Shown here: positions 5,806 to 58,815 of the stretch, in pieces
Position numbering within the stretch: position 1 is the first letter of the stretch
Layout: the number at the start of each line of letters is the position of its first letter
Assembly (NCBI GenBank): GCA_965248145.1
Contig: OZ252091.1
Span: 3,047,222-3,111,221 of the forward strand
Source: Gammaproteobacteria bacterium
Lineage (GTDB): Bacteria; Pseudomonadota; Gammaproteobacteria; Eutrophobiales; Eutrophobiaceae
DNA: 64,000 bases
Direction: 5' to 3'
Made by a program: the position numbers and the translations under genes
Notes under the pieces: generated by a model
What the model saw: the letters and a program-made list of their open reading frames with translations, nothing else
Databases searched by the model: none
What the model was told of the DNA's origin: nothing

Positions 5806-6048
5806 TTGCCTCTGGAGATGCGTATGAATAATTCTGTCATTACCAGAGACCCTGGAATCCTCGGTGGGGTTCCTGTTTTCAGCGGGACCAGAGTTCCGGT
5901 ACGCATTCTGATGGAACACTTGGAAGCTGGAGACCGACTTGATGATTTTCTTGATGACTACCCCACCGTCAGTCGTGAGCAGGCCATTCAATTGATCGAA
6001 CTGGCCATTGAGCAACTCACGAACGCTGGTAATGAAGCTGCTGCTTGA
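5806..6048 (+). CDS. DUF433-type antitoxin-like protein
   Basis: ITRDPGILGGVPVFSGTRVPVRILMEHLEAGDRLDDFLDDYPTVSREQAIQLIELA is the typical DUF433 signature. Its end overlaps the start of the next gene. Confidence 0.75.
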   Translation: MPLEMRMNNSVITRDPGILGGVPVFSGTRVPVRILMEHLEAGDRLDDFLDDYPTVSREQAIQLIELAIEQLTNAGNEAAA

Positions 6049-6409
6049 CGAATCCATACCGAGGCGCTTGGCCGCCCATTTTCCCGATACTTTCGAAATC
6101 AAGACCGTTCCCGCTATGGGGTGGGCAGGTGCCAAGAACGGTGCATTGTTCAGGCTTGCGGCAGATAAGGGATTCAGAGCACTCATCACCGCAGATCAAA
6201 ATATCGAGCATCAACAGAATCTGGATACGCTTCCTATCACTATTGTCGTACTCATCGCGCACCGCACCCGAATTCAAGATTTTCAACCATTGATTCCAGA
6301 GGTCGTTCTAACTCTTGAAGATAACCCCGGGAAGAGCTTTTATCGTATCACCGCCAGAGAGAATGACGAAGATTTAGCTCAGGATAGTCAATCTTCGTTA
6401 CTGCCATGA
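6032..6409 (+). CDS. DUF5615 / PIN-like (Mut7-C type) putative toxin partner of DUF433
   Basis: The ATG at 6032 gives MKLLLDESIPRRLAAHFP.... It overlaps the DUF433 stop by 17 nt, the usual two-gene arrangement. Confidence 0.65.
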   Translation: MKLLLDESIPRRLAAHFPDTFEIKTVPAMGWAGAKNGALFRLAADKGFRALITADQNIEHQQNLDTLPITIVVLIAHRTRIQDFQPLIPEVVLTLEDNPGKSFYRITARENDEDLAQDSQSSLLP

Positions 6410-6593: not shown

Positions 6594-6947
6594 TGGAAAT
6601 TAAAGGGTTACCAGGAAGCCGGTAACCGTTAAATTGATGGCAGTAGCTGCCAGAACAAGACCGATCATCCATTTGATTATCCTGTTTTCCATTTCAATCA
6701 TTTTGTTTTTCATTTGGATAAGATCAATTTTAGTCGCTAACTGATCCGACAGTTCGTCATTCAACGCCCTGGCAAAGGCGTCGGCTTTTTCTGAATCAAA
6801 TATCTTTTCTTGTTTCAAACGTTCTGAGAACCCGAATGAGACAGTAGACATGATGTCACCTCCATTGACTCCATTAAAATATATACCAGTGATTGTTTGC
6901 TGGATAGTATAACCCGCTTCACATTTTCAAACAAAGCAATCGTTCAC
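6594..6947. repeat. Right copy of the ~360-bp direct repeat (see 5404-5775)
   Basis: Alignment by eye with 5404-5775. Confidence 0.85.
6600..6851 (-). CDS. Small coiled-coil protein with C-terminal transmembrane helix (DUF1640-like), paralog of 5412..5675
   Basis: 83 aa: MSTVSFGFSERLKQEKIFDSEKADAFARALNDELSDQLATKIDLIQMKNKM...WMIGLVLAATAINLTVTGFLVTL. Confidence 0.6.
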   Translation of the reverse strand: MSTVSFGFSERLKQEKIFDSEKADAFARALNDELSDQLATKIDLIQMKNKMIEMENRIIKWMIGLVLAATAINLTVTGFLVTL

Positions 6948-7031
6948 TTGACTAATTCAATGGAAGAGTCTATATGTACCGAACAACAGGAGCTTTTTCT
7001 ACCTCTCAGGGAACATCAGCGAGTATCATAT

Positions 7032-7604
7032 ATGGCATATAGTGAAAAGCGGGCGGCACAGACTGCAGCATTCTTTATCTCTCGCGCCGGCGGCACAATC
7101 GAATTATTAAAACTCATGAAGTTAATGTATCTGGCCGAGCGCGAATCTCTTACCAGGTATGGTGAGCCTATCACGGGCGATGTCCTGGTTTCCATGAAAC
7201 ATGGTCCGGTATTATCTATAACACTGGATCATATTAACGGTTTCATTGATTCAGAAGAGGGAGGATGGGAAAGCTGGATCAGCGCCAGAGCGGGTCACCA
7301 GTTAGGATTACAACCAGCGCACGACCCCGCCGATAAGTTGACGCAATTAAGTGACGCAGATATGGAGATTCTTGATTTCATATGGGACAAGTTCGGTCAA
7401 TACAGCAAGTACAAACTCCGCGACATTACCCATGAAATTTGCTCGGAGTGGGAAGACCCCGGAGATACATCGCAACTCATTCCATATAGCAGGGTACTGA
7501 ATTGTGTAGGTCATAAACCTGAGGTTGTCCGAGAACTCGAACAGAGAATACGCGATGAAGAGGAGTTGGACAAAATGTTCAGTTCAACCACAACGAACCA
7601 TTAA
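7032..7604 (+). CDS. Panacea-domain (DUF4065, SocA-like) antitoxin-type protein
   Basis: From the ATG at 7032: MAYSEKRAAQTAAFFISRAGGTIELLKLMKLMYLAERESLTRYGEPITGDVLVSMKHGPVLSITLDHING, the typical Panacea-domain core. Confidence 0.7.
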   Translation: MAYSEKRAAQTAAFFISRAGGTIELLKLMKLMYLAERESLTRYGEPITGDVLVSMKHGPVLSITLDHINGFIDSEEGGWESWISARAGHQLGLQPAHDPADKLTQLSDADMEILDFIWDKFGQYSKYKLRDITHEICSEWEDPGDTSQLIPYSRVLNCVGHKPEVVRELEQRIRDEEELDKMFSSTTTNH

Positions 7605-7630
7605 TCAGATTAAGTTAGTTCTAGTAGGAT

Positions 7631-8017
7631 ATGGGCGAATGGACCTGCAGGCCAGGAGGCACATTAATCATCCCCTCCGGACCAAGAGGAGAACACCTTT
7701 TTATCATCCTCAACATGCCAAAAGACTTTGCCGGCTATTTAAATTCATCAGTTCTTGTTAATGTATGCAGTGTAAGAAATGCGCCGCATGACGGAACGTG
7801 CATACTGGAACCTGGAAGCCACCCGTTCATTAAACAAAGGAGTTATATAGCGTACAGGCACGCCAGGATAGACAGGGAAGAAAGTTTAATTCAACAAGTC
7901 AGTGCCTCATTATTCACTCCACATGATCCATTGGATGATACGTTGTTAAAACGCGTTCAGAATGGATTACACAAGTCTCCACAAACTCGAAGATTTCTGA
8001 AGGAAGTCGATATATAG
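7631..8017 (+). CDS. Hypothetical 128-aa protein, candidate toxin partner of the Panacea-domain protein
   Basis: It starts 27 nt downstream of the Panacea gene on the same strand. I recognise no family. The segments PGGTLIIPSGPRGEHLFIIL and SYIAYRHARIDREESL are loosely reminiscent of MazF/CcdB-fold toxins. Confidence 0.5.
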   Translation: MGEWTCRPGGTLIIPSGPRGEHLFIILNMPKDFAGYLNSSVLVNVCSVRNAPHDGTCILEPGSHPFIKQRSYIAYRHARIDREESLIQQVSASLFTPHDPLDDTLLKRVQNGLHKSPQTRRFLKEVDI

Positions 8018-8251: not shown

Positions 8252-9325
8252 TTACTGCCATGATGGTTTAATTATCTGTTCAAGCAAGACCTCAGCCGCT
8301 TCTGCACCCCTCGCTTTTTCATCCTTGAGATCAAGGTAACACTGAATTAGTGATACCACGGATTGTCCCTGTATATTGCGAGTTCCGTAATATACCCCGT
8401 CATCATAGGGCGAAATAATCCTGACATTGCCGCCTGATGTCATCGGTTTAAATGGCAGTTCCTTTATATTTCTCTCTAAAATATCCATATAAACAGCAAC
8501 TGTCCTGTAGGTTGTAAACGGAGCATATCGTGACGCACCGGAAAAACTGGTGAAGGCATACCGGGTCTGTGCCCGGCTACAGAAATCACCGATCTTTGAC
8601 TCAATGTCTCCTACCGATCCCATATCATAAAACTGGTACGCAGTATTCCGATCCGACTGATACTCGGACAACCAGTTAGCAAGTAGTTGAGAGGGTTCAG
8701 TCAATTTGATCCCTCGTTTCTGATCCTGTATCCATTCTCGTTCAAGCAGCAACTTACGAACATTGGAAACCTGACCAACACTGACATCGGCAGCTTCAGC
8801 AAGTTCCATTGCCAGCCACTGACGATCAGGTTCGCATAACAAAGTTCGCAATATCCGCTCGGCTTTGGGTTTGAACAAGGATTTCAATTCACTTTTCCTG
8901 GGAAAGCGATTCGGATTTCCCTTTATCTCTATAAATATCGAGTCGAAATGTAACCAGCAATTGCCGGAGAAATCGATGTAGCCGATCCTGTTACTTTTGC
9001 AAATCTCGGCTGAAGCCTCAGAAATATACGGCGCAACAAATACACCATAATCACCGGGTCGTTTGTGTTGGAGTACAATCAACTGGTTAACAGCAGAGCG
9101 CGCTGAACGGGGTTGACCGGATGCATTGATTTCAACCAGCAAGGTTTTCCTGTCATTCTGTTTCCGGAAAGAGACAAGGAGGTCGGCGCGATAATTCTCA
9201 ACCCAGCTTTCCGGTTCAACGCGGAGTTCCATCAACTCCGGGATTCGTTGTAAGGTAGACAAAATTACTTTCCTGGCTTCTTCAATTTGGATTTCTTCTT
9301 TTATCATTAAAATGAATATAATCAA
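8252..9325 (-). CDS. AbiEi-like winged-helix regulator with an N-terminal nuclease-fold-like domain
   Basis: 357 aa. The N-terminus has ADLLVSF...LLVEINASGQP, a D...ExN/K-like pattern. The middle has FKPKAERILRTLLCEPDRQWLAMELAEAADVSVGQVSNVRKLLLEREWI (wHTH). I recall the C-terminal region from proteins annotated as type IV TA AbiEi-family antitoxins. The family assignment is from memory only. Confidence 0.55.
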   Translation of the reverse strand: MIIFILMIKEEIQIEEARKVILSTLQRIPELMELRVEPESWVENYRADLLVSFRKQNDRKTLLVEINASGQPRSARSAVNQLIVLQHKRPGDYGVFVAPYISEASAEICKSNRIGYIDFSGNCWLHFDSIFIEIKGNPNRFPRKSELKSLFKPKAERILRTLLCEPDRQWLAMELAEAADVSVGQVSNVRKLLLEREWIQDQKRGIKLTEPSQLLANWLSEYQSDRNTAYQFYDMGSVGDIESKIGDFCSRAQTRYAFTSFSGASRYAPFTTYRTVAVYMDILERNIKELPFKPMTSGGNVRIISPYDDGVYYGTRNIQGQSVVSLIQCYLDLKDEKARGAEAAEVLLEQIIKPSWQ

Positions 9326-9569
9326 TAAATGTTGAAAATATCATAAATAGTGAAAATATGATATAAAATCAGATAATTCATACAATCATCTATAAGTGAA
9401 TAAAATATAACTGATTGTTAGTATAGATATAATTAAGGTAATAACAAAGCAATTCCTTCATTTATCTCTAATTGATGGAATTATCCATATAATGGTGCAT
9501 ATTTTATATATTAATTGATATAATTAAATTGACGTCAAACTTATTACTATCGTCCGACAATAATCAAAT
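9326..9569. promoter_or_regulatory. AT-rich divergent control region between the AbiEi-like gene and the STAND gene
   Basis: 244 bp, strongly AT-rich. It contains the dyad tgaaaatatcataaatagtgaaaatatgatat (atatcat / atgatat arms) and several TATAAT-like hexamers. No promoter was mapped. Confidence 0.35.
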
Positions 9570-12500
9570 ATGACAAAAACTGTAAATAAGGAACACACTG
9601 CGATAACCAGGTACGATTCGTCCACTGATATACAGGGACGCATAAAACTTATGACAGCCTTGCAGCAACATCTGCAATACCATCTCGGCGGAACACAGGC
9701 CCAAAAGGCTGAAACACTCGGTATAACCCAACCTCGCTTGAACGAATTGATCAAAGGCCGCTCTGATAAATTCAGCCTTGATGCTCTTGTATCACTAGCT
9801 AATAAAGCTGGACTACGAGTAAACGTGAGCGTACAGAATGTACAAATCCATACAGGTCCGGTCTTAAGTAGTCAAAATATTACTCCCATACATACGACAT
9901 TTGCCCCTGCTCCAAGTGAATTAGGCAAATTGGATTCAAGACAGGGTACAGACTTGTTTCTCAGACTATTGCGATGTGAAGCCATCGCCAACGGGCTTGG
10001 GCCAAAAGATGTCGTATTGTCTTCAAACATCAATGCACCGGATGGAGGGATTGACGCAAAGGTAGAGAATTCTCCGATCTCCGGTTCTCTATTGGAAAAA
10101 GGCAGCACGTATTATCAAATCAAGACAGGTGATGATTTTAAACCCTGGCAACTCAGCATCTTGAAGAAAGAATTATTTAGAAAATCGAATGCTACACCGT
10201 CAAAACAGCGCCTAGGCAGCGAGGTAAAAAACTGCCTCGAACAGAACGGGACTTACGCCCTAATCACCTTCGGATATGACCTGCTGCCAAATCAGCACAC
10301 GGAAATAGTCAAGCACCTGACGAGTTTGTTTAACGAATGTGGTTACACCAATCCAAAAGTACATGTGTACGGACAAGGGCAGATAGTTGGTGAATTGGAT
10401 AAATACCCTTCAATCTGTCTTGATTTAATCGGTCTTGACGACGCTAGATTTATGTCTATTGAAGGTTGGAGAAATAACGCCCAAATGCAGGGTAGGCCCG
10501 AACTTGGAGGTGAACAGGAGACCTTAATCAAGGACATAAGAGCGGCACTGCAGGAAAATGCCGTTCAACATATCCGTATCACTGGTGAACCAGGTATCGG
10601 TAAAACCCGGTTAGTGCTTGAAACGCTGGATGTTGATGAAATCAGACCATCGGTCATCTATGTGCTAACAGGTGAGGATTTTCAAAAGAGCAAATTATTT
10701 AATGAACTGTTGAAGCCTGACAGAACCTATTCCGTCGCATTGGTGATTGATGATTGTGATAATCGTGACAGGGTGCAGATCTGGTCGGCGCTGAAGGGTC
10801 GTGGAGGCATTAAATTAATTACGATAGATCATGAGCCTGACGAAACCCACGACAGCGCCATGCGGATATATCACTGTCCCCAACTTCCCGAAGAGCAAAT
10901 CAAAAATATCCTGTTCAGTTATCTCAAACAACAGGCAGATTTAAGTAATTGGTCAGAGTGGTGTGGTGGGTCTCCTCGTGTCGCTCACCTGGTCGGTGAA
11001 AATCTAAAAAGTAATCCAGATGACTTACTGAAATCACCTGCTGATGTCTCTATATGGGAACGATTTATCATTGGGCATAAGGAGATGGCGAGCCATGAAG
11101 CGAGGCAGTATCGGACTGTACTGCGCCATATTGCGTTGTTTCATCGCTTCGGATTTGAACCACCGGTAAGTGATGAGGCGAAATTTATTTCAGGTCTGGT
11201 TGAACAAGTGGACCCGAATATCACCTGGGGCCGATTCCAGCAAATTGTGCAGCACTACCGGGACAAACGCATTTTACAGGGGAGGTACACCTTGTTCATC
11301 GTTCCAAAAATGTTACATGTGTATTTATGGGTACAATTTTGGAAGCATCATGATCACGGAATTCAATTTCAGTCATTCCTGGAACAGGTACCCGAGAGTA
11401 TGAGACGATGGTTATTAGAGTTATTTATTTATGCTGAAGAAGCACAGGAAGCTCAATCTGTCGTCAAGCGAATTTTATCGCCATCTGGACCATTCTCCAA
11501 GACGGATTTTTTTAAATCCGAAGTTGGAATGCGATTTCTGAACTACCTATCTGAAGCAGATCCTTCAGGTACGCTGGCCCTATTGGAAAGAACAATTAAA
11601 ACATGGTCACCGGAAGAATTATATTCCTGGCGTATTGACCGCCAGGATATTGTATGGGCATTGGAAAAGATTGCAGTCTGGGATGAATTGTTTGTCCGCG
11701 CGGTATATGTATTAATCCCCATGGCAATGGCAGAAAATTCGAGTCATTCAAATAACTCTAAGGGACTGTTACTCAGTTTATTCCAAATTGGGCCAGGGTG
11801 GGCTCCAACGCAGGCTCCTCCATCCAAGCGTTTTCCAATCTTACAGGAACTGGTCATGAGTGATGATGCCAGTCGGCGTTCCCTGGGGCTGGAAACGTGT
11901 GAGAAGTGGCTATCAGAGCACAGTGACTCTCGGATAGTTGGCGCGGAGTACCAAGGGGCAAAACCTTCTATCGAATTCTGGCGCCCCGAGACATACGGTG
12001 AAATGTTCGACTGTTGGCGCCAGGTATTACAATTCTTGCGTACAGAGATGAAGGGATTTGAGATAGATGATCGTAATGAAGCAGTAAAAATACTGGTCAA
12101 TGCCGCCTATGGTTTTGTGCATATAGAAGCAGTAGCCAATGAAGTAATGGACATCTTGTTTGAGCTTGTCGAAGACAAGGATATAGATCGTAGGCCACTG
12201 ATTCAATTTGCTATACAACATCTGAACCAATCAGATGAAGAAATTGATAAAACAACTCTTAACAGAATCCGGCAATTGGACAGAGTTATAGCCGGTACGT
12301 CACTTTGGGAAAGAACCATCCGCTATATCCTGTCAAGTAGTGATCTAGAAGACTATAGATTTAGCGGAGGAAAAGTTAAAGAATCTGATCTACCAGGTAA
12401 ACGGGTAAAAAACTTGACGGAAGAATACACAAAGGACCTTGATGTATTCTCCGAATACATACCAAAACTGGTCACGGCGTCTGGCTATCGACTATCTGAT

Positions 12501-13640
12501 CTGGGGAAAGAATGTGGAAAGCTGGCTGTGACGGAATTTGATGGACCAATAATTAACTATATAGAAATCAGCGGCGATACATGTAATGGCCAATTCTTTG
12601 GAGGCTATCTTGCAGGTATTCGCACTCATGACGTAGCCCGTTACGAAAACCTGTTACGCCGTTTATTAAATAACGAGGCAACTCAAAAGATCGCCATAAA
12701 CTGCATAAGGTACTCTGGCTTTACCGAGCTAATTATGCAGGATATGTTGGCACTGCTGAAGAGCCGGCAATTAAGAGCAGGGGACTTTGAGGGATTCGCT
12801 TTTATGAAGGATACCAAGGGTATATCAGACAATCTGTTTCAACAGGTTATTTACACTCTTCTGGCTCTTGGAGATGATACTTCTATTAAGATCTGTACAG
12901 AAGCTATCCACAGTTATTACTTTGGCGAAACAGCCACAGGCGAAATTCCCGAAGAACTGATCTTCGACATATTGAGTAAAGTGCCTTCTAGTAATAGACG
13001 TGATCAAATGCATGGATATTATTGGGAAAAAATAGCCAAGGAATTTCTCAAAGAACATCTACACCGAAAATTGGAACTATTTAATATAATTTTGCGTGAT
13101 GCAGGAAGAATTTCCCGTTATGGGAATATGGCTGAACTAGCCGATGAAATCGTGAAGGACCATCCTGATGATTCATGGAAAATTATTTCAGAACTTCTTG
13201 AAACCGAACCAATAAAGCGGCATCAACTTATTTCCTGGTTGGGCGATAGTAGCACGGGAGATACTCGGAAATATGGTGCTATTCGCAATATGCCAGCAAG
13301 CGCTATTATCGACTGGGTCAAAGCCGACCTAGGTAATCGATGCTGGTTAATTCAAGGATTTTTACCAAAAACTTTGGATAAAACAGAAGGCCTATTGACT
13401 CGTTTATTTATCGAAGAATTCTGCGATGATACTCAAATATCTGACAGCCTTTTTGTATTTTTTCTCTCGGGCGGTAGAAGGGGACCAGAAAGTGAGTACC
13501 TATCTGGAATACGGGACGCCGCAAGGCAATGGATGGCAGATATTTCGTCTCCCAAGATACAAGCATGGTTAGGAAAATTTATTGATTTTCTAAACGACCG
13601 AATTGAAGCATCACAAATCCGAGAGGAACGCGAATTCTAG
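9570..13640 (+). CDS. 1356-aa multidomain protein: HigA2/XRE-type HTH, Mrr-like PD-(D/E)xK nuclease, STAND-type P-loop NTPase, long helical repeat region (Avs-like architecture)
   Basis: HTH at aa ~45-85: QKAETLGITQPRLNELIKGRSDKFSLDALVSLANKAGLRV. Nuclease-like region at aa ~129-186: FLRLLRCEAIANGLGPKDVVLSSNINAPDGGIDAKV...YYQIKTG. Walker A at aa 339-346: GEPGIGKT. Walker B: VALVIDDCDN. About 950 aa of helical sequence follows. Confidence 0.65.
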   Translation: MTKTVNKEHTAITRYDSSTDIQGRIKLMTALQQHLQYHLGGTQAQKAETLGITQPRLNELIKGRSDKFSLDALVSLANKAGLRVNVSVQNVQIHTGPVLSSQNITPIHTTFAPAPSELGKLDSRQGTDLFLRLLRCEAIANGLGPKDVVLSSNINAPDGGIDAKVENSPISGSLLEKGSTYYQIKTGDDFKPWQLSILKKELFRKSNATPSKQRLGSEVKNCLEQNGTYALITFGYDLLPNQHTEIVKHLTSLFNECGYTNPKVHVYGQGQIVGELDKYPSICLDLIGLDDARFMSIEGWRNNAQMQGRPELGGEQETLIKDIRAALQENAVQHIRITGEPGIGKTRLVLETLDVDEIRPSVIYVLTGEDFQKSKLFNELLKPDRTYSVALVIDDCDNRDRVQIWSALKGRGGIKLITIDHEPDETHDSAMRIYHCPQLPEEQIKNILFSYLKQQADLSNWSEWCGGSPRVAHLVGENLKSNPDDLLKSPADVSIWERFIIGHKEMASHEARQYRTVLRHIALFHRFGFEPPVSDEAKFISGLVEQVDPNITWGRFQQIVQHYRDKRILQGRYTLFIVPKMLHVYLWVQFWKHHDHGIQFQSFLEQVPESMRRWLLELFIYAEEAQEAQSVVKRILSPSGPFSKTDFFKSEVGMRFLNYLSEADPSGTLALLERTIKTWSPEELYSWRIDRQDIVWALEKIAVWDELFVRAVYVLIPMAMAENSSHSNNSKGLLLSLFQIGPGWAPTQAPPSKRFPILQELVMSDDASRRSLGLETCEKWLSEHSDSRIVGAEYQGAKPSIEFWRPETYGEMFDCWRQVLQFLRTEMKGFEIDDRNEAVKILVNAAYGFVHIEAVANEVMDILFELVEDKDIDRRPLIQFAIQHLNQSDEEIDKTTLNRIRQLDRVIAGTSLWERTIRYILSSSDLEDYRFSGGKVKESDLPGKRVKNLTEEYTKDLDVFSEYIPKLVTASGYRLSDLGKECGKLAVTEFDGPIINYIEISGDTCNGQFFGGYLAGIRTHDVARYENLLRRLLNNEATQKIAINCIRYSGFTELIMQDMLALLKSRQLRAGDFEGFAFMKDTKGISDNLFQQVIYTLLALGDDTSIKICTEAIHSYYFGETATGEIPEELIFDILSKVPSSNRRDQMHGYYWEKIAKEFLKEHLHRKLELFNIILRDAGRISRYGNMAELADEIVKDHPDDSWKIISELLETEPIKRHQLISWLGDSSTGDTRKYGAIRNMPASAIIDWVKADLGNRCWLIQGFLPKTLDKTEGLLTRLFIEEFCDDTQISDSLFVFFLSGGRRGPESEYLSGIRDAARQWMADISSPKIQAWLGKFIDFLNDRIEASQIREEREF

Positions 13641-13890: not shown

Positions 13891-14508
13891 ATGAAAAAAG
13901 CAATGGTATATATTGATGGGTTTAACCTGTACTACGGTATTCGGAGTCTGAATAAGCCCAATCTCAAGTGGCTAAACGTGCAAAAATTGGCTGAAAGTTT
14001 CCTGCATAAGGGTACTCAATTGGTACAGGTTAAATACTTTACAGCCATGCTCAACGGAAATGTCGAAAAATCTAATCGCCAAAAGCACTATCTCAAGGCA
14101 TTAAAGGAACATACTACTCATTTAACCATAGTCAAAGGGCACTTTTTGATAAAGGGTTTTAACTGCCGAAAATGCAATTATCACAATGAAACTTTTGAAG
14201 AAAAGCAATCGGACGTTAATCTTTCTTGCGAATTATTAGCGGATACTTATGAAGATTGCTTCGATATTGCTTTTGTTGTTAGCGGCGATAGTGATTTGGC
14301 AACGCCAGTATCGAAAGCAGTTACTAAAGGTAAATCTGTTATAGTTGCCAACCCGCCGAACAGGAAAAGCCAGGCCCTCTTAAGAGCAGCAAGTAACGGA
14401 TTCAGCATTAATCTAAGACGCTTAAGGTCCTGTACACTTCCTCAACAATTCACGACCGAAAATGGTAGCTTCACAATGCCGGAAGAATGGCAGGTAAAAG
14501 TGAAATAG
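13891..14508 (+). CDS. NYN-domain (LabA/PIN-like) putative ribonuclease with an inserted CxxC pair
   Basis: MVYIDGFNLYYG at the N-terminus, EKQSDVNL and VVSGDSDLATPV are the conserved acidic motifs of NYN domains. CRKCNYHNETFEE lies between them. Confidence 0.75.
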   Translation: MKKAMVYIDGFNLYYGIRSLNKPNLKWLNVQKLAESFLHKGTQLVQVKYFTAMLNGNVEKSNRQKHYLKALKEHTTHLTIVKGHFLIKGFNCRKCNYHNETFEEKQSDVNLSCELLADTYEDCFDIAFVVSGDSDLATPVSKAVTKGKSVIVANPPNRKSQALLRAASNGFSINLRRLRSCTLPQQFTTENGSFTMPEEWQVKVK

Positions 14509-14577: not shown

Positions 14578-15305
14578 TTACGTCATCACCATCGTTTCCG
14601 TATCACCAGCCGCCAGTGCGTTCATGTATGCCAGGATAAGGTCTTTAGTGCGATAACGACCAAACTTGGCTTCATCTTCCTTGCGGACGATAGGAAAAGT
14701 ATCAAGTACGTAACTCGCATCTTCCCTGGTCAAGCCGTAAAGGTGGAAATACAATGCATCAAGTCGGGCGCGTAGGTGACGGCGCTCCTCTTCGTCCCAA
14801 GTAAACGGTGGGTTGTCGTATCCGAGATCGCGGGCGAAGGGTTCCATGTCATGGGAGGTATAGGTAAGACGTAACACATGATCGCAAATAAGTTTACTGG
14901 CACTCTTGTCACCGAAGGTCCTATCATAATCGCCGGGTTTGATGACAGGAAGTTGCTCAAGCAAGTACAAAGTAAAATTATTACCAGGCACCTTTTGTCG
15001 AGCAACAAAATCGAACAAGAAAGTGTTTAAGTTCGCTACTATTAAACAGCCAGTTCGTGGTGTGTTGCCTAAGTCCTCTGATATTGTTAGGAGGTTTAAA
15101 GAATGCCCGGCACCGACTTTCGGTAATATGGCGGCTATCATCGTTCTTATGTTGGTTGTAGCCGTAACATTTTTGAAAGCAATAATCCAATCGTAATTTG
15201 AAACCCATTTTGTATCATTGAGTTGCACAAAATATCTTGATAGTGGTAAACGATTAAAATTCTGTTTTTCCGTTGTTGGAATAGTTTCTTGTTGACCACC
15301 CCCTC
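14578..15305 (-). pseudogene. C-terminal fragment of the type IIG restriction-modification gene cut by the IS3-family element
   Basis: The reading frame of ORF 14578..15228 stays open upstream to the IS boundary (GGGQQETIPTTEKQNFNRLPLSRYFVQLNDTKW...). It continues the theme of the N-terminal fragment, which ends ...FDHRAADTTINQENLFRPG. Confidence 0.75.
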
Positions 15306-15372: not shown

Positions 15373-15870
15373 ATGTCACATTATTCAGCAGAACGAAAAG
15401 AGGCCGTAATGCAGCAGATGATGCCGCCGCATAATATGCCGATACCGCGGTTAGCAGAGGAGACGGGCATCTCAGATGTCACGTTGTACAGTTGGCGCAA
15501 ACAAGCCAGGGTCGAGGGGATTGCCGTGCCAGCCGCTGGAAAGAATCCGGAGGAGTGGTCATCACAAGACAAGTTTGCCATTGTTCTGGAAGCGGCCTCG
15601 TTGAATGAGGCTGAACTGGCCGAGTACTGTCGCAAGAAGGGCCTGTACGTTGAGCAGGTCGCGTCCTGGCGGAAAGCCTGTCTACAGGCCAATGCCAGTA
15701 GCGCCGCCCAGGCCAAAATCCAACGAGAACAAACAAAGCAAGATCGTCAACAGATCAAGCAACTGGCAGGTGAACTGCGGCGTAAGGAAAAAGCGCTGGC
15801 CGAAGCGGCTGCCCTACTGCTTCTCCAAAAAAAAGCCCAGGCGACCTGGGGGGGAGGAGGGGACGAATGA
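15373..15870 (+). CDS. IS3-family transposase OrfA (HTH)
   Basis: PRLAEETGISDVTLYSWRKQ is the HTH, followed by a leucine-zipper-like C-terminus. Confidence 0.9.
   Translation: MSHYSAERKEAVMQQMMPPHNMPIPRLAEETGISDVTLYSWRKQARVEGIAVPAAGKNPEEWSSQDKFAIVLEAASLNEAELAEYCRKKGLYVEQVASWRKACLQANASSAAQAKIQREQTKQDRQQIKQLAGELRRKEKALAEAAALLLLQKKAQATWGGGGDE
15827..15835 (+). promoter_or_regulatory. Programmed -1 ribosomal frameshift slippery run (CAA AAA AAA G) for the OrfAB fusion
   Basis: An A8 run lies in the orfA frame. The -1 frame is open from here into orfB (PKKSPGDLGGRRGRMISHF...). Confidence 0.7.
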
Positions 15871-16919
15871 TCAGTCATTTCGATCGTCGTCATGCGGTCG
15901 AATTGATAGACGAAGCCGTGACAGCCGGCGCCCGACAACACCAGGCCTGCGCCATCCTGGAGCTCAGTGCTCGCACCTACCAACGTTGGACACAGGATGT
16001 GGCGGTACTAAGTGATGCTCGTCCCAGTGCTGAACGACCGGTACCGTCCAACAAACTCAGTGTCGAGGAACGACAGGTCATCCTTGCGCTGAGTAACAGC
16101 CCGACATTCCGTAGTCTGCCACCGAGTCAGATTGTGCCCATCCTGGCCGATGAGGGACGTTATCTGGCTTCGGAGTCGACCTTCTACCGGGTCTTGCGGG
16201 AGGCAGAGCAGCAACACCACAGAGGTCGCAGTAAAGCACCACAACACAAGCCCTTGAGTACCCACTGTGCCAGCGGCCCCAATCAGGTGTGGTGTTGGGA
16301 TATCACCTGGCTGCCGGGACCGGTCCGTGGTCTGTTTTATTACCTCTACCTGGTCTTGGATCTCTACAGTCGCAAGATTGTGGCCTGGGAGGTTCATGAG
16401 AGTGAGGCCAGTGAGTTGGCCGCGCAACTGATTCACAAAGCGTGTCTGACGGAAGGTATTGTGGCACAACCGCTGGTATTGCACTCGGACAATGGTAGTC
16501 CCATGAAAGGAACCAGCATGCTGGAGACCCTGCGCTGGCTGGGTGTGACACCATCGTTCTCCCGACCGCGAGTCAGCAACGACAATGCCTATGCTGAATC
16601 AGTGTTCCGAACTTGCAAGTACCGACCGAACTATCCGGTGAACGGGTTTGCCAGCATCGATGAGGCCAGAGCATGGGTGTTGTCCTTTAGTCGTTGGTAT
16701 AACACGGAGCATAAACACAGCGGGTTGAAGTTCACAACACCAGAGCAGCGTCATACTGGTGTAGCGACAGCCATACTTGCGCATCGTAAACACCTATATA
16801 GAGAAGCAAGAGAGCATCACCCGAATCGATGGCGTGGTGATATCAGGAACTGGGAGTTACCAGAGAAAGTCTGGTTGAACCCGGAGAAAGAACAGCCCGA
16901 ATTAAATAAGGCTGCGTAG
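15867..16919 (+). CDS. IS3-family transposase OrfB (DDE/rve integrase core)
   Basis: WCWDITWLP, LVLHSDNGSPMKG and NAYAESVFRTCKYR. Confidence 0.9.
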   Translation: MISHFDRRHAVELIDEAVTAGARQHQACAILELSARTYQRWTQDVAVLSDARPSAERPVPSNKLSVEERQVILALSNSPTFRSLPPSQIVPILADEGRYLASESTFYRVLREAEQQHHRGRSKAPQHKPLSTHCASGPNQVWCWDITWLPGPVRGLFYYLYLVLDLYSRKIVAWEVHESEASELAAQLIHKACLTEGIVAQPLVLHSDNGSPMKGTSMLETLRWLGVTPSFSRPRVSNDNAYAESVFRTCKYRPNYPVNGFASIDEARAWVLSFSRWYNTEHKHSGLKFTTPEQRHTGVATAILAHRKHLYREAREHHPNRWRGDIRNWELPEKVWLNPEKEQPELNKAA

Positions 16920-16943
16920 GCTCGGGCGACAACTATGTTGACA

Positions 16944-19900
16944 AACACCGACCAGGCCGAAACAGATTCTCCTGATTTATTGTTGTATCAGCAGCGCGGT
17001 GATCAAATGCCTGTACCATCTTACCTTCGTAGAGCGGCACCCATTTCTCCGTTGGACTATTGAAACAATTACCGCCGATAGGATACGCACCTTCATCTTC
17101 TTCAAGTACCTCGCGTGTGCGAAACAGATGTGAGTCATTGGCCATGTGAAACATATTCATGTACTTCACTGGCCACGCCTTCTTTTCCTGACCTGATGAC
17201 TTGTCAACCAGAACAGGATGTCCTTCATAAATGCGGCGGGTTATGTCGGCATCACGACGAGAACGAAAGACCGGAGCAGTGCCGGTATTAGGGTTCACAC
17301 GAACGAAATCTACAGGCGACAGGGGGAAACAGCGATCCGGGTCATTGATTGTGCTTGTGCCGTCAAGAAAAAAACCACACCGGGTCTCTACGAAAGTTCG
17401 CTCTTCACCGCCGAATATCAGGGCACAGAATTTGAAACTCCGATGCACATCCGGGAAAAATGGTGGCAGGTCGGTCCCAACACGGCCGTTCTCGAAGTCG
17501 AACAAACCTGCAATTTGCCCACTCGTTGAAACTGATTTGAAAAACTGGGCCGCAGTCTTATCTGCATAAATTCCTGACGGTGTAAGCAGTCCAACCAAAC
17601 CGTCGGGTTTGAGCAGATTCATCGCCTTCTCTACAAACAACGAGTAGAGGTTGATGTCGCCTCCGCCCAACAGAGGATAATGATCGGATTTGCGAATCAT
17701 TTCACTCAGTTCATCTGCTCGCGTTTTGGCCGTACCGAATTCGTCGGCCAACGGATTGCCCTGTTCGCTTAACCTCTTTATTGCATTTTTTCGCTGTGCG
17801 GCGGTCGGGAGGCGAGCAATATCGGGAGCGCGAGTTGCAAACCACTCTACTTCTTGCAGCTTGATTCGGTCCCAGGGCGGATTACCGATTATGGCGTCGA
17901 ATCCACCTTCAGATTGTTGATCCTGCCACCGTTTCCAAACGCCTGGGAAAGCAACTTGCCAATGCAGGAAGCCTTCTCGCCTTGCTATGGAAACAGCTTT
18001 ATTCCATAGCATACCAAAAGGGGTAGTTTTTTCCTGCGCACTGCCGGGACCGCGAGAAAGTAACTGGTAAGCGTTATCGGGATCGGCTTCCAATACCTGA
18101 TTAAGAGGAAGCTCAATTTTCGTTCGCTCAGACTTACTCAAACCGGCCGTCAACCAACGTAAACCGCATACAAAATCAAGAAATCCGCGTAGTACGGACG
18201 TAGTCTCTTCAACGCCGCAGAACAGATCAATCGACTGCTGCACCTCTGATATGTCGGTATCCGACATCTCCTCAATAAGTTGCATACCGGTGGCCGCGTT
18301 TTCAGCACCCTGGATCGCACTGGATACAAACAGAGCGCCAAGTCGATACAGTTCTTCGTTGGAGTCTTTTATTCGGAGACCGAGTAATGAGTCGCCACAA
18401 CGCAGGTGGTGGTCCAGGAATGACAGTGGGGCGCCGACAGTAAAACTGTGTAGCCATAAAGATACTTTTGCCAGTTCCACCGTCAGGGGATTCTTGTCCA
18501 CGCCGTAGATACAACGTTTGAGTACCATACGCCGGATAATGGCCTGGTCGGTAAACTGCGCTTCGTCAACCACCCAGCCAGACTCGGTGGCCCGGTTCAG
18601 AATATCTGTCCGGATCGCGTCTATTCGTTCAACGAGGGGCGATACATACTCACCGTTAAGCCATTCCGGCACAACTGGTACATACTCGATCAGGTTAACA
18701 ATATTGTCAGACAGAAAATCCACCGCAGTGACGAGAAAATGACCGCTGCCCATAGCCGGGTCCAGAACTTTCAGATTCAATACCGCTACTGCCGGATCCA
18801 GTTTGGAGAGTTCGATATGTCGTTCAGCTTTAGGACGACGGTCGCTTTTGAGGGCTTCCGACTTCTTCTCAAACTCCCGCAGGCGATCCTCTGCAAGCGG
18901 CTTAAGTGTCTGCTCCACAATCAGGTCAACCAGTTCCTGCGGTGTGTAGAAGCTGCCGCTGTCCTTGCGCGCATACGGATTGGGACGCACAGACACGCTG
19001 CCGTCTTCTGCGCGTACCGGTTCGCGTTCCAGCAACCTTTCATAGAGCGAGCCCAATTGTTGTACTGACATATCCCGATAATTGACGAAGTGGTGTTCAC
19101 CTGCGCTTTCAGAATGGCTCAGATCATGGATAATATCGGCGATTACCGCATCCGACAGACGTACATTCTCAAGGAGTGGAGCGGCTGTGGACGCGAACAG
19201 ACCGCCGTTGTAGGGAGGTAAGCCGATCGACGCGTCACCCTTATCTATAAGCCTGAAAAGTTCCAACAGGCGATTGTAGTAGTTGGCCGCCGTCACGGAA
19301 AAAACATCATCCTGCGCCTTCCGTTGCGCAATGTCGTCCCGTACACGCTTACGCAGGCCGTAATCATCATAGCGAAGGTCATTAACGGGTAGCAGGCCAC
19401 GGTCCTCGGCATACAGGATGAATAACAACCTGTAAAGGAAGATCAACGCGGCAGCGCGAACCTCTGGCAGGCTCGCTCCGGCAGTGTTTGCAAGCGCTTC
19501 AACGACCTTGGGAAACACATGGTCAAAGACTACGCTAGAAAGGTCCTGGGTAACCTTTTCTTCGTAGCGCCGGCCTTCCGCGAGGGCAGCTTCCAGGAAA
19601 GTAGTTGTTGCTCCCTGTTGGAGTACAAACGCATCCCGACGAAATAAGAGGAAAAACGTTCTCAGCCCGTCTTTATCTCCCTCATTCAGGAGTGTCTGAA
19701 GACCAATTTCGAAAAAGCCGTTGGCGCGCGGTCGGGCACGCTGGTCGTAGAGTCGCCACACACTACCGTTGGTAAGGATACCCCACCGAATATTGCCCTC
19801 CGAAACAATTTCAGCGGTTGACAGGTAGCGCAATATCTGCCCATGGGGCGTACCCTCTTGTACCTTGTCGCCCTCTTCCCGGCTGTCGAGAGATCGGTCG

Positions 19901-20265
19901 AACCGCTTGCTTTCCTGTACCAACAGCGCGTCCTTGTAACGATCTTTTGAATTACTGCGGGCAATAGCCCGCTTCTTCGAGTCGGCGTCCATAAATAGCA
20001 GGTGGTCGGGAATGTCTTCGTTGCGCGCCGCGCCCTGTTGCGGCAGGTATTCGCTCCATCCCAGCAACTCCAGAACCGGACGAATAAGATCTTGCTCCGT
20101 CACCGCCTCATTAGGGGCGCTGAACTGACTGAACTTGTTGAAGCGGGCGCGGATGGCATTGACAAAGACAGCAAACGTCTCCGGTCGTCTCACCGACTCC
20201 CGCCACTCATCGGTTGCCCGAATCCCGTCGGTCAGGAAGTATTGTTTGAACAACTGAGCAGACAT
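16944..20265 (-). pseudogene. N-terminal ~1100 codons of a type IIG restriction enzyme/N6-adenine methyltransferase (PD-ExK nuclease plus gamma-class MTase), truncated by IS insertion
   Basis: Nuclease-like motifs are IPDHLLF ... ALLVQESKRF. MTase motif I is VLDPAMGSGHFLV and motif IV is IIGNPPWDR. The ORF runs into the IS end (the last residues CLST are IS-encoded). Confidence 0.8.
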
Positions 20266-20654: not shown

Positions 20655-20731
20655 TGGCGCGGCTGACAAGATTCGAACTTGTGACCTCGACCTTCGCAGG
20701 GTCGCGCTCTGCTCCGCTGAGCTACAGCCGC
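20655..20731 (-). tRNA. tRNA-Arg (anticodon GCG)
   Basis: Manual cloverleaf: gcggctg ta gctc agcggagca gagc g cgacc ctGCGaa ggtcg aggtc acaag ttcgaat cttgt cagccgc g cca. Confidence 0.75.
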
Positions 20732-20734
20732 AAA

Positions 20735-20808
20735 TGGTCCGCCCTGAGAGATTCGAACTCCCGTCTTCCGGTTAAAAGCCGGATGCACGGCCACTATGCC
20801 AAGGACGG
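20735..20808 (-). tRNA. tRNA-Lys (anticodon TTT)
   Basis: ccgtcct tg gcat agtggcc gtgc a tccgg ctTTTaa ccgga agac gggag ttcgaat ctctc agggcgg a cca. It has a short variable loop and G-U pairs. Confidence 0.7.
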
Positions 20809-20812
20809 AGTA

Positions 20813-20889
20813 TGGCCTGCCCGGAGAGATTCGAACTCCCGACCTGCTGGTTAGAAGCCAGCTGCTCTGCTCCGCTGAGCTACGGGCAG
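20813..20889 (-). tRNA. tRNA-Arg (anticodon TCT)
   Basis: ctgcccg ta gctc agcggagca gagc a gctgg ctTCTaa ccagc aggtc gggag ttcgaat ctctc cgggcag g cca. Confidence 0.85.
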
Positions 20890-20893
20890 TCAT

Positions 20894-20981
20894 TGGCGGA
20901 GAAGCCGGGATTCGAACCCGGGTGGGCGCGTTGCCCTCTCGTTTAGCAAACGAGCGCCTTAAGCCACTCGGCCACTTCTCC
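20894..20981 (-). tRNA. tRNA-Ser (anticodon GCT), long variable arm
   Basis: ggagaag tg gcc gagtggcttaa ggc g ctcgt ttGCTaa acgag agggcaacgcgcccac ccggg ttcgaat cccgg cttctcc g cca. Confidence 0.85.
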
Positions 20982-20990
20982 ATCGAAATA

Positions 20991-21066
20991 TGGGGTGACC
21001 CACCGGATTCGAACCGGCATCTCCCAGGATCACAACCTGGTGCTTTACCGTTAAGCTAGGGTCAAC
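20991..21066 (-). tRNA. tRNA-His (anticodon GTG) with encoded G-1
   Basis: g ttgaccc ... ccagg ttGTGat cctgg ... ccgg ttcgaat ccgg t gggtcac c cca. An extra 5' G pairs with C73, as expected for bacterial tRNA-His. Confidence 0.8.
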
Positions 21067-21077
21067 ATATCTGTGTT

Positions 21078-21165
21078 TGGCGGAGACTGAGAGGATCGAA
21101 CTCCCACGTCCGTCAGGACATCACCGGGTTCAAGCCGGATAAGCACGCCAGCCTTGCGAGTCTCC
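21078..21165 (-). tRNA. tRNA-Ser-like (anticodon TGA), long variable arm, irregular D arm and anticodon stem
   Basis: ggagact cg caaggctggcgtgctta tccgg ctTGAac ccggt gatgtcctgacggacgt gggag ttcgatc ctctc agtctcc g cca. Position 8 is C, there is a 27-43 mismatch and the D stem is weak. Confidence 0.55.
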
Positions 21166-21211
21166 ATATTCGGCAGCAGACAACAGGTCCCTGTCCGCAC
21201 ACCACATATTT

Positions 21212-21289
21212 TGGTCTGGGAGGCCGGATTCGAACCGGCGACCTCTCGGGTCCAAGCCGAGGGCTCTGGCCAGGCTGAGCTACTCCCAG
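21212..21289 (-). tRNA. tRNA-Pro (anticodon TGG)
   Basis: ctgggag ta gctc agcctggcca gagc c ctcgg ctTGGac ccgag aggtc gccgg ttcgaat ccggc ctcccag a cca. The C1-G72 pair is typical of bacterial tRNA-Pro. Confidence 0.85.
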
Positions 21290-21297
21290 ACAACGTC

Positions 21298-21376
21298 TGG
21301 TAGACCGGGGCCGATTCGAACGGCCGTCCTCGCGATTATGAGCCGCGCGCTCTGTACCTGACTGAGCTACCGGTCT
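21298..21376 (-). tRNA. tRNA with CAT anticodon (elongator Met or lysidine-modified Ile2)
   Basis: agaccgg ta gctc agtcaggtaca gagc g cgcgg ctCATaa tcgcg aggac ggccg ttcgaat cggcc ccggtct a cca. It is not initiator-like. C4 and C5 in the acceptor resemble Ile2 determinants, but this is undecidable by eye. Confidence 0.8.
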
Positions 21377-21385
21377 GGTTTAAAC

Positions 21386-21461
21386 TGGTGATCCGGACAG
21401 GATTCGAACCTGCAATTACGAGATTGAAAGTCTCGTGGCTTCACCATTCGCCCACCGGATC
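21386..21461 (-). tRNA. tRNA-Glu (anticodon TTC)
   Basis: gatccgg tg ggcgaatggtgaagcc a cgaga ctTTCaa tctcg taatt gcagg ttcgaat cctgt ccggatc a cca. Confidence 0.75.
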
Positions 21462-21489
21462 AAACGAAATTGAATGTCCCTCCATCATC

Positions 21490-21565
21490 TGGAGCTGGCG
21501 GTGAGTCTCGAACTCACAATCTGCTGTTTACAAGACAGCTGCCCTGCCGATTGAGCTACGCCAGC
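21490..21565 (-). tRNA. tRNA-Thr (anticodon TGT)
   Basis: gctggcg ta gctc aatcggca gggc a gctgt ctTGTaa acagc agatt gtgag ttcgaga ctcac cgccagc t cca. Confidence 0.85.
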
Positions 21566-42045: not shown

Positions 42046-42648
42046 ATGGAAATCACACGCAATACTGTTGATACTTCCAAATTCAATTATGAATCAAAGC
42101 CTCCATACGAATTGCGCCAGCAGGATTTTCAAATGGCGATGCAGGATGTGTACGATTTCTTTTTTGACGTAAATTCTCATCTCCTTGCCAAAGGATTACA
42201 GCGCCTTGATGATATGCTCCGTCCCGCTATCATGTCAGGGTTGCTCTCAGATATGTTAACTGCAAGTCTAGCAAGGCACTCCCGCGTGTTAACAGAGAAT
42301 GAATATTTTAATGGTCATCCCGACCTGATCATGCAAGGCAAATATCCCGATAACGCGGTCAAAGCAGGTACGGAAGGAGTGGAAATAAAAACCACAAGAA
42401 AAGCCGGAGGGGCAGTTGATACTCATGGAGCACGAGATCAGTGGATGTGTGTTTTTGTTTATACGGTAGATACCACTTCAGAACCTGCAAATCACAGGGT
42501 ACCGATGACCTTCACTGAGGTCTATCTGGGAAAGGTAACAGTGGATGATTTCCGAAGAAATCCCAGAGGCGAATTGGGGACTCGTACGGCTACGTTACAT
42601 AAAGACGGTGTCAAGAAACTTCGGGATAGCTGGATATACATGTTTTAG
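42046..42648 (+). CDS. Putative type II restriction endonuclease (PD-(D/E)xK)
   Basis: HPDLIMQGKY...GTEGVEIKTTRK fits PD-X(n)-E-x-K. It is convergent with the adjacent DNA methyltransferase and overlaps it by 38 nt. Confidence 0.55.
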   Translation: MEITRNTVDTSKFNYESKPPYELRQQDFQMAMQDVYDFFFDVNSHLLAKGLQRLDDMLRPAIMSGLLSDMLTASLARHSRVLTENEYFNGHPDLIMQGKYPDNAVKAGTEGVEIKTTRKAGGAVDTHGARDQWMCVFVYTVDTTSEPANHRVPMTFTEVYLGKVTVDDFRRNPRGELGTRTATLHKDGVKKLRDSWIYMF

Positions 42649-44123: not shown

Positions 44124-44453
44124 CTATGCAACTTTCACCCGGGCAGTGTGTTCCTCAAATGAAGTCGCGATTGTGTAGGGCTGCCTGGCTTTTTCCATCA
44201 TGTCAACCAGCGCGTCTATGGTGAATTTTTGAATTTTGCCGCGCATCAGGTCACTGACACGAGTTCGTTGAATTCCGAATATCCTGGCGGCATCATTCTG
44301 GGTCAGTCCGTTATCCTTAATCCATGCGGTAATCTTGAGCATCAATTCCGCCTTGATTTTCAGTTTGACAGCTTCACCAGAACCAAAACCCAGATCAGCG
44401 AACACATTACCGCCTTTCGGTGTAACGTGGCGGATTTCAGTGCAAATAGCCAT
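44124..44453 (-). CDS. HigA2-like XRE-family HTH protein, no intact toxin partner seen
   Basis: NVFADLGF...ELMLKITAWIKDNGLTQNDAARIFGIQRTRVSDLMRGKIQKFTIDALVDMMEKA. Only 63 nt separate its start from the purF stop. Confidence 0.7.
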   Translation of the reverse strand: MAICTEIRHVTPKGGNVFADLGFGSGEAVKLKIKAELMLKITAWIKDNGLTQNDAARIFGIQRTRVSDLMRGKIQKFTIDALVDMMEKARQPYTIATSFEEHTARVKVA

Positions 44454-58458: not shown

Positions 58459-58815
58459 GGGGGCGTACCTGGTTTCGACGAGGGTACCAAATCCCAAGGG
58501 GCATGCCGAGGCGCAGATTACCTCGTAAATACAGCTGCAAACTTTTTAGTTGCCGAAGAAGACAACTACGCTCTAGCTGCATAAAGCCGGCTAGCCTTTG
58601 ACTGATATGTGCTTGTACTTTCAACTCAGAGGTCATATATACAAGCTCGCGATGAAATCTGTCCGGGGTGGATTCGCTAAAACTTAACGGACTCGTTATC
58701 TGCCTTCCCCCGCCGGTTTGGGTAGCAGGTGACTAAATTTAAAGAATCGGCTAAGCATGTAGAACCGAAGGCAGAGGGCTCGCGGACGCCGGTTCGACTC
58801 CGGCCGCCTCCACCA
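58459..58815 (+). ncRNA. ssrA: tmRNA (SsrA); predicted tag AEEDNYALAA
   Basis: The 5' end gggggcgtacctggtttcgacg pairs with the 3' end ...ggttcgactccggccgcctccacca, giving G3-U70 and a T-arm. The tag reading frame is gcc gaa gaa gac aac tac gct cta gct gca taa. Confidence 0.93.

Follow-up and report, generated by a model that had tools for sequence, protein, structure and literature searches.

The stretch of DNA analysed here (hereafter the window) is 64 kb long, comes from a Gammaproteobacteria bacterium (assembly GCA_965248145.1, contig OZ252091.1, positions 3,047,222 to 3,111,221) and carries at 9570..13640 on the forward strand an intact open reading frame (ORF) of 1356 aa. Its product joins an N-terminal helix-turn-helix (HTH) domain to the parts of an antiviral STAND (Avs) receptor related to Avs8; we refer to the protein as HTH-Avs and to its gene as the HTH-Avs8-like gene. 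An earlier note, made from the sequence alone, had described a single reading frame of this length in a low-GC patch, and its length and coordinates match exactly; the low-GC patch is confirmed as well (0.39–0.45 over 9–14 kb, against ~0.50–0.55 in most of the remaining window). The motifs quoted there are likewise all found: the HTH, DGGID (residues 158–162), YQIK (182–185), GEPGIGKT (339–346), and VALVIDDCDN (389–398); the Avs-like order that it proposed, from HTH through nuclease motif and STAND nucleoside triphosphatase (NTPase) to a large C-terminal sensor region, is right. The protein aligns with its homologs over the full length, through a conserved C-terminal ...EEREF. One database entry begins 27 residues further in; we take the long reading frame as real because ATG 9570 is invariant in a DNA alignment of eight orthologs and residues 15–27 are conserved among homologs.

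The N-terminal domain (residues 20–88; 9627..9833, forward strand) belongs to HTH_37, a family of the XRE superfamily, in agreement with its first description as a HigA2/XRE-type HTH. Pfam HTH_37 (PF13744) matches with E 1e-11 in the whole protein and E 2e-13 in the isolated segment, scoring 45–50 bits where the gathering cutoff is 27; among solved structures PDB 2a6c comes closest (E 1e-10). The model of the domain consists of four helices (residues 17–38, 43–50, 54–61, and 70–79) and a β-hairpin. HTH_37 is also the family of the HigA2-type antitoxins and of Nitrosomonas NE1354 (the protein of PDB 2a6c); in contrast to those antitoxins, HTH-Avs has the domain fused to a 1,250-aa immune receptor, and none of the genes flanking the ORF in the window encodes a HigB-type toxin. 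The label "antitoxin-type" is thus apt as a statement of domain family but not of a toxin–antitoxin (TA) role, the cognate toxin being absent and the domain being part of a receptor. A flexible linker (residues 89–107; 9834..9890, forward strand) follows: residues 86–107 are disordered in the AlphaFold2 model (confidence score pLDDT <50), and HTH-less relatives of the protein start at about residue 107. A free-standing gene elsewhere in the window (44124..44453, reverse strand) encodes an HTH_37 protein (E 2e-19) that shares 41% identity with the fused HTH across 41 aa of the recognition-helix region, as expected from the suggestion that the two are of one family. It lies between genes for a purF-like amidophosphoribosyltransferase (44517–46034) and a DNA methylase (42611–43837), with no toxin-like ORF adjacent.

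Residues 313–660 (10506..11549, forward strand) comprise the STAND NTPase module, with a nucleotide-binding domain, a helical domain and a winged-helix region. The Walker A motif GEPGIGKT occupies residues 339–346 (nt 10584–10607, containing K345), the Walker B motif LVIDDC residues 391–396 (nt 10740–10757, containing D394/D395), and a GxP motif, G467-S-P469 (nt 10968–10976), is conserved in homologs (all on the forward strand). G339, P341, G342, G344, K345, T346, D394, and D395 are invariant in 51 homologs, and the Walker A G, G, and K remain so in 39 distant HTH-less relatives. The AlphaFold2 model of residues 1–660 (mean pLDDT 78.8) presents the HTH, the linker, an α/β domain, the NTPase and then helical domains, residues 441–660 being mostly helical. 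Compared with the PDB by Foldseek, this model has as its best matches the plant NLR resistosomes NRC2/3/4, CED-4, NLRP9, Avs4 (8dgf), a bacterial STAND–TPR protein (6mfv), Dark, SAMD9, and NOD2, with E-values of 2e-6 to 6e-4 (Avs4 over 541 aligned columns); Pfam matches to AAA_16, NB-ARC, and nSTAND are weak and all under their gathering cutoffs. Because of the Foldseek neighbours, which are STAND and NLR proteins, and the invariant Walker A, Walker B, and GxP motifs, the STAND assignment, first proposed from the P-loop and a following hhhhDD pattern, is solid. Avs3 and Avs4 (PDB 8dgf) are, like HTH-Avs, tripartite nuclease–STAND–sensor receptors in a single protein, but their sensor differs and they have no HTH; HTH-Avs has no significant match to any PADLOC model of Avs1–5.

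The relationship that does emerge is to PD-λ-4A. PD-λ-4 came to light in a functional selection carried out in E. coli (Vassallo et al. 2022, PMC9519451), with the ECOR07 protein WP_000963924.1 as reference for its A component, and has been renamed Avs8 (bioRxiv 10.1101/2025.07.02.662641; 10.64898/2026.01.04.697583). Avs8A comprises an Mrr-family nuclease, a STAND NTPase and a sensor resembling tetratricopeptide repeats; its targets are HK97-fold major capsid proteins, bound at nanomolar affinity, after which it degrades double-stranded DNA in an ATP-/Mg-dependent manner, and active-site mutants of its nuclease lose defence (same two preprints). Avs8A alone is sufficient for defence, and its partner Avs8B is reportedly dispensable (bioRxiv 10.1101/2025.07.02.662641). 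We compared profiles from PADLOC with the window protein, five neighbouring proteins and the relatives. PD-Lambda-4_A (PDLC03991) is the only defence model matched by the window protein (E 9.5e-31, residues 116–1098 against profile positions 9–1011 of 1283), and it is also the only one matched by the relatives, of which 39/39 diverse members score (best E 2e-47). As a canonical Avs8A we used a protein encoded on an Enterobacter plasmid (L084), which reaches 1,777 bits with the PADLOC model. In BLASTP the window protein is 21% identical to it across 751 aa (E 4e-20), the nuclease and both Walker motifs being aligned, and hhalign of a profile of the 39 diverse relatives against it gives a probability of 100% (E 4e-41) over 1,096 colinear columns, spanning family-profile positions 5–1160 (of 1270) and Avs8A positions 2–1162 of 1283. 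The sensor region of HTH-Avs (residues 661–1356; 11550..13637, forward strand) is homologous to the PD-λ-4A/Avs8A sensor over most of its length, and the C-terminal region is kept over its full length in the HTH-less relatives.

Domain order is common to the two proteins (a PD-(D/E)xK nuclease, predicted in HTH-Avs and of the Mrr family in Avs8A, then the STAND NTPase, then a large, putatively helical sensor), as are the xDGGxD...QxK and Walker A motifs; the Walker B regions align, with VIDDC in HTH-Avs and VLDNC in Avs8A. HTH-Avs differs in its added N-terminal HTH_37 and linker (residues 1–107), in a promoter dyad specific to the HTH clade (below), and in having no counterpart of the second gene of the Avs8 operon. 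No Avs8B-like partner was found: PD-Lambda-4_B has no match among the five neighbouring proteins that were scanned, and no downstream gene is conserved as a partner in 83 related loci. That absence counts against the assignment, although Avs8B is reportedly dispensable, as do several features of the alignments themselves. The PD-Lambda-4_A match scores a weak 104 bits, where the canonical member reaches 1,777, BLASTP similarity fades after about residue 820, identity to Avs8A is only ~18–21%, and the C-terminal ~110 positions of the family profile (~120 residues of Avs8A) are left unaligned by hhalign. Because of the low identity and the unaligned C-terminal end, the trigger of HTH-Avs may differ from that of Avs8A. 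By its sequence the window protein nevertheless is a distant but genuine member of the Avs8A lineage, with homology through most of the sensor; it does not lie outside the described Avs types, and its novelty is correspondingly lower than first claimed.

Between linker and NTPase, residues 108–312 (9891..10505, forward strand) form a predicted PD-(D/E)xK-type nuclease effector domain, supported by a conserved motif, model topology and the Avs8A alignment. D158, D162, Q183, and K185 are its candidate catalytic residues; these four and G160 are invariant in the 51 homologs, and the corresponding DGGxD/QxK residues are invariant in 39 HTH-less relatives at 27–41% identity. An AlphaFold model of the nuclease alone (pLDDT 83) adopts an α-β-β-β-α-β topology that places D158/D162 at β2 and the QxK in β3, and the region aligns with the N-terminal nuclease of canonical Avs8A (INAPDGGID...YQIK in HTH-Avs, INAPDGGVD...FQAK in Avs8A). 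DUF4365 is the only nuclease-type Pfam family to recur among the relatives, weakly (5/30 isolated domains, best E 0.006) and without a match in the window protein itself. DUF4365 (PF14280) is the PD-(D/E)xK effector nuclease of SPARDA, with a Q-x-K active site and activation by assembly (PMC10810196); the Q-x-K motif is common to it and the nuclease region of HTH-Avs, and the proteins have no other domain in common.

Profile and structure searches gave no confirmation of the nuclease fold. Pfam Mrr_cat (PF04471) is unmatched in the whole protein, in the isolated segment (E ≤ 10), in 39 full-length relatives and in 30 isolated domains, and at E ≤ 10 the isolated segment matches no Pfam family at all; Foldseek of the nuclease-only model against the PDB finds nothing significant (best E 0.25, with Mus81 and RuvC only among the chance-level matches), nor does a profile of 30 nuclease domains against PDB sequences. 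The original label of an Mrr_cat segment is thus not borne out by Pfam, Foldseek or PDB profiles, although motif and predicted topology remain compatible with PD-(D/E)xK. Because of the invariant DGGxD/QxK residues, the αβββαβ model, the weak DUF4365 signal and the alignment to the experimentally active Avs8A nuclease, we consider it likely but not proven that residues 108–312 are an active PD-(D/E)xK nuclease, with a fold that profile and structure searches leave unconfirmed.

HTH-Avs represents one branch of a large family. An exhaustive HMMER search with residues 100–1299 gathers 2,786 representatives at 50% identity, 823 of them at E ≤ 1e-30; most members are 1,250–1,270 aa long and have their N-terminus at the nuclease. 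In reference genomes, the HTH-less relatives (29–45% identity) match from about residue 107 to the C-terminus, with ORFs that start within a few codons of that point, and include proteins of Variovorax, Polaromonas, Poribacteria, Pseudanabaena, and some archaea. The HTH-fused clade, at 46–83% identity in reference genomes, is found in Gammaproteobacteria, Nitrospirales, and Desulfobulbaceae metagenome-assembled genomes (MAGs) and spans three phyla; clustered at 90% identity, the HTH-fused form makes up more than 120 clusters, only one of which lacks PF13744. The placement of an HTH before the nuclease, singled out in the earlier note as unusual, is thus the defining feature of a clade, and it recurs with other HTH types in sister subclades. 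There, N-terminal extensions of 65–100 aa carry other XRE-type families, HTH_3/HTH_31 (P0131, P0142, P0146, P0149, P0161, P0179, and others), and two further extensions (P0150, P0208) have no Pfam match. A crude neighbour-joining tree groups the HTH_37 fusions as monophyletic and places the HTH_3-type fusions in other subclades, interleaved with HTH-less members. This distribution suggests repeated gain, repeated loss being less parsimonious, and the presence of different XRE-type HTHs at the same position suggests selection for the arrangement. MAGs of Candidatus Poribacteria, Nitrospirales, and uncultured Gammaproteobacteria account for many of the relatives (L004–L083); these lineages are known to live with sponges, a hint that members of such communities exchange the family. 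In the plasmid collection, besides canonical Avs8A, only distant relatives named "hypothetical" or "ATP-binding" protein are present.

Naming sources label the HTH-fused proteins "XRE family transcriptional regulator", as NCBI does for five HTH-Avs proteins of 1,340–1,365 aa (P0054, P0063, P0068, P0096, and P0114). Taken at its word, this name would make HTH-Avs a STAND-type transcription factor in the manner of MalT or AfsR, in which a ligand of the C-terminal region controls the HTH and the "nuclease" is degenerate or otherwise used. Regulators of the HTH–STAND–repeat type are well known and are listed among the non-immune STANDs in the literature (MalT, AfsR, and GutR combine, as does HTH-Avs, a DNA-binding domain with a STAND NTPase and a repeat sensor), and a plausible operator is present at the HTH-Avs gene. 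Those regulators, however, have no nuclease effector and govern metabolic or biosynthetic regulons; in HTH-Avs the catalytic residues of the nuclease are invariant in HTH-fused and HTH-less members alike, a defence nuclease validated by experiment is colinear with the entire protein, most of the family has no HTH, the genomic context is a defence island, and the only operator found is that of the gene's own promoter. We regard a pure transcription factor as very improbable; the annotation as a transcriptional regulator hides a nuclease–STAND immune receptor.

The DNA upstream of the gene contains a candidate operator, the 18-bp dyad TATATATTAATTGATATA (9505..9522, forward strand; family consensus tT-TATATCAAT·ATTGATATA-Aa), which overlaps the spacer and extended −10 of the HTH-Avs promoter. 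A perfect extended −10 element, TGATATAAT (9516..9524, forward strand), extends from 54 bp to ~45 bp upstream of the ATG, its position being read from the sequence; that it acts as the promoter −10 is inferred from its consensus. We aligned the intergenic regions of eight orthologs (62–71% protein identity), in which invariant blocks stand in AT-rich, poorly alignable DNA, and TGATATAA is invariant there. Information content collapses outside the dyad, the flanks not being conserved. A pair of palindromes, TAATTGAT(G/A)(G/T)AATTA at 9469 and 9512, was rejected as the operator; only the part that lies within the TATAT-N8-ATATA dyad is conserved.

This pattern, TATAT-N8-ATATA, lies at most 101 bp ahead of the start codon in 26/27 HTH-clade loci (a count that includes two duplicates of the same contigs, so that unique loci number 24/25) and in 0/52 HTH-less relatives. 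In the window it occurs once, at 9505–9522, against 0.03 occurrences expected. The strict form TATATC-N6-GATATA occurs 23 times, in 19 loci; each of these sites is directly upstream of an HTH-Avs gene, and the 84 loci (~1.6 Mb) contain no other. Four loci (L010, L019, L020, and L026) carry two exact copies 28–29 bp apart; in L020 and L026 the two copies flank a recognisable −35 of the TTGAC(A) type and a −10 resembling TATAAT. Upstream of the free-standing HTH_37 gene at 44124–44453 the Avs dyad was not found.

The one regulator that recurs next to these genes is an AbiEi-like protein (below), and it too was considered as the factor behind the dyad; it is ruled out in that role by the 9/9 HTH-clade loci that keep the dyad without an AbiEi-like gene; of the loci with that neighbour, 17/18 have the dyad. 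The dyad tracks the HTH domain rather than the neighbouring AbiEi-like regulator, and the simplest interpretation is binding of the fused HTH to the dyad at its own promoter. The suggestion that the HTH might autoregulate the gene thereby gains the backing of a conserved operator-like element. Three features of the site weaken the case: the window copy is less symmetric than the consensus (TATATA...GATATA) and single; HTH and dyad are inherited together within one monophyletic clade, such that their co-occurrence does not represent independent events; and part of the right arm of the dyad is the −10 element, which would be conserved regardless.

The last of these points opens the way to a different account, in which HTH-Avs is an ordinary Avs8-like protein whose HTH tethers or positions the nuclease on DNA, or else serves as a dimerisation or autoinhibition module that keeps the receptor inactive at rest, the dyad being the site of another factor or simply a conserved promoter. 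In the model the HTH is the direct neighbour of the nuclease, joined to it by a flexible linker; dimerisation is common among XRE-type HTH domains; and the overlap of the right arm with the −10 box would be conserved for promoter function alone. A −10 element by itself leaves the left arm and the duplicated copies unexplained, however; the HTH-less relatives, which need promoters too, have no dyad in 52/52 cases, and the dyad is there with or without the only recurrent neighbouring regulator. We consider this account improbable, though the likeliest of the alternatives.

The AbiEi_2-like gene itself (8252..9325, reverse strand; Pfam AbiEi_2 E 3e-9) is divergent from the HTH-Avs gene and likely has its true start at ATG 9307 rather than TTG 9325. 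Adjoining that start is a tandem 18-nt repeat, ATAAATGTTGAAAATATC / ATAAATAGTGAAAATATG (9325..9360, no strand assigned), the core bases of which are invariant in the eight orthologous intergenic regions; from this conservation it is a candidate AbiEi operator, separate from the Avs operator. A divergent AbiEi_2-like gene ~211 bp upstream is found in 18/29 HTH-clade loci and in at least three genomic contexts, with 65–84% identity (at least as conserved as the Avs protein), and in 15 of these 18 loci it is followed by a gene for a 275-aa AbiEii-like nucleotidyltransferase (Pfam AbiEii E 7e-4 in the orthologous loci, just under the cutoff).

So regular a neighbourhood, with an intergenic region that holds conserved elements for both genes, could mean that HTH-Avs and the divergent AbiEi_2-like gene, together with AbiEii, form a co-regulated defence cassette, with input from both regulators integrated at the shared intergenic region, in which the AbiEi-like protein takes the role of an Avs8B-type partner. 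We find this quite unlikely. Nine HTH-clade loci without an AbiEi-like gene keep the dyad, and the AbiEi-like gene is missing from all HTH-less relatives; the AbiEii-like gene is absent from the 64-kb window, leaving the AbiEi_2-like gene an orphan there, and yet the Avs gene is intact. The two sets of conserved intergenic elements are spatially separate, the AbiEi-like protein has no PADLOC PD-Lambda-4_B match, and AbiE is a self-contained type IV TA and abortive-infection system. An AbiE-type module often travels with HTH-Avs, but it is not an obligate component and is not required for the operator.

We therefore favour, as rather probable in its entirety, a model in which HTH-Avs is an Avs8-like abortive-infection nuclease receptor whose fused HTH represses its own promoter via the 18-bp dyad; the alternatives of a non-regulatory HTH, an AbiE–Avs cassette and a pure transcription factor are all less well supported, and we hold the Avs8-like part with greater confidence than the whole. 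The observed ground for it is the domain order, the invariant catalytic and NTPase motifs, the STAND fold, the colinearity with Avs8A and the co-occurrence of dyad and HTH; binding of the dyad by the HTH, repression, trigger, nuclease activity and phage defence are what the model would add to it. By analogy with Avs8A, the C-terminal sensor would recognise and bind some conserved protein of the phage, for which an HK97-fold major capsid protein is the most plausible candidate; this binding would bring about ATP-dependent oligomerisation via the STAND module, and oligomerisation would in turn activate the N-terminal PD-(D/E)xK nuclease, so that DNA is degraded and the infection aborted. At rest, the HTH_37 domain, on its flexible linker, would bind TATATC-N6-GATATA over the −10 and spacer, such that the receptor represses its own transcription and a potentially self-toxic nuclease is kept low and buffered. 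A more speculative extension, which we think doubtful, would couple sensing to expression: the resting receptor would sit on the dyad and oligomerisation would strip the HTHs off the operator, giving derepression as the nuclease fires. Were this so, HTH-Avs would be a positive-feedback circuit that senses, kills and amplifies in a single polypeptide. As at least two HTH types that Pfam distinguishes recur in this position in separate subclades, the Avs8-like family would then have arrived at such wiring on more than one occasion.

The surroundings of the gene are, as had been proposed, those of a typical defence island; by gene content it is an island of defence genes and mobile elements. It runs from mutS through a PP2C phosphatase gene, an overlapping DUF433 and DUF5615 pair resembling a TA module (5806–6409, forward strand) and a SocA-Panacea pair to the AbiEi-like and HTH-Avs genes. 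The SocA-Panacea pair (6897–8017, forward strand) consists of a SocA/Panacea antitoxin gene and then an unannotated 128-aa ORF, its candidate toxin; it is also present in a related locus (L005, 14861–15933) at 82–88% identity, on the other side of the Avs ortholog, and thus resembles a mobile TA pair carried along by the same islands. Past HTH-Avs lies a gene for an NYN-domain protein (13891..14508, forward strand) with a full-length match to PADLOC HEC-09 (E 4e-64), a candidate system whose tested representative gave no phage defence (bioRxiv 10.1101/2024.01.29.577857); as a partner of HTH-Avs this gene was rejected, being absent from all 83 related loci. The island continues with an Eco57I-type IIG restriction–modification gene split by an IS3-family insertion element, the segments lying at 14578–15228 (reverse strand), 15373–16919 (forward strand), and 16933–20265 (reverse strand), with orfA matching HTH_Tnp_1 and orfB matching rve; the insertion has probably inactivated the restriction–modification gene. 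The island is bordered by ten closely packed tRNA genes (Arg, Lys, Arg, Ser, His, Ser, Pro, Met, Glu, and Thr; 20655–21565, reverse strand), and a tmRNA gene is found further along the window, at 58459–58815.

What is already known and what is added here can be separated clearly. The Avs8 family has been named and mechanistically characterised, and the HTH fusion is widespread; in the literature searchable here we found no description of HTH-fused Avs proteins or of a cognate operator, and the accessible portion of the supplements to a STAND survey preprint mentions none of Avs8, XRE or HTH. The pairing of the HTH fusion with what appears to be its cognate operator-like dyad would therefore be the new element, within the limits of that literature. 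Finders of defence systems may miss the HTH-Avs clade because of its weak profile match and missing PD-λ-4_B partner, and the HTH-less family, which numbers thousands of representatives across bacteria and some archaea, takes the Avs8 lineage far outside the Enterobacteria.

Receptors of the Avs/NLR-like kind are potentially self-toxic, and how bacteria set their level of expression is poorly understood. A receptor that carries what appears to be its own repressor domain, together with a matching operator, would offer a simple and testable form of built-in autoregulation of an innate immune sensor, and for all that the fusion is widespread, this autoregulatory wiring would be a concrete addition to a known Avs lineage.

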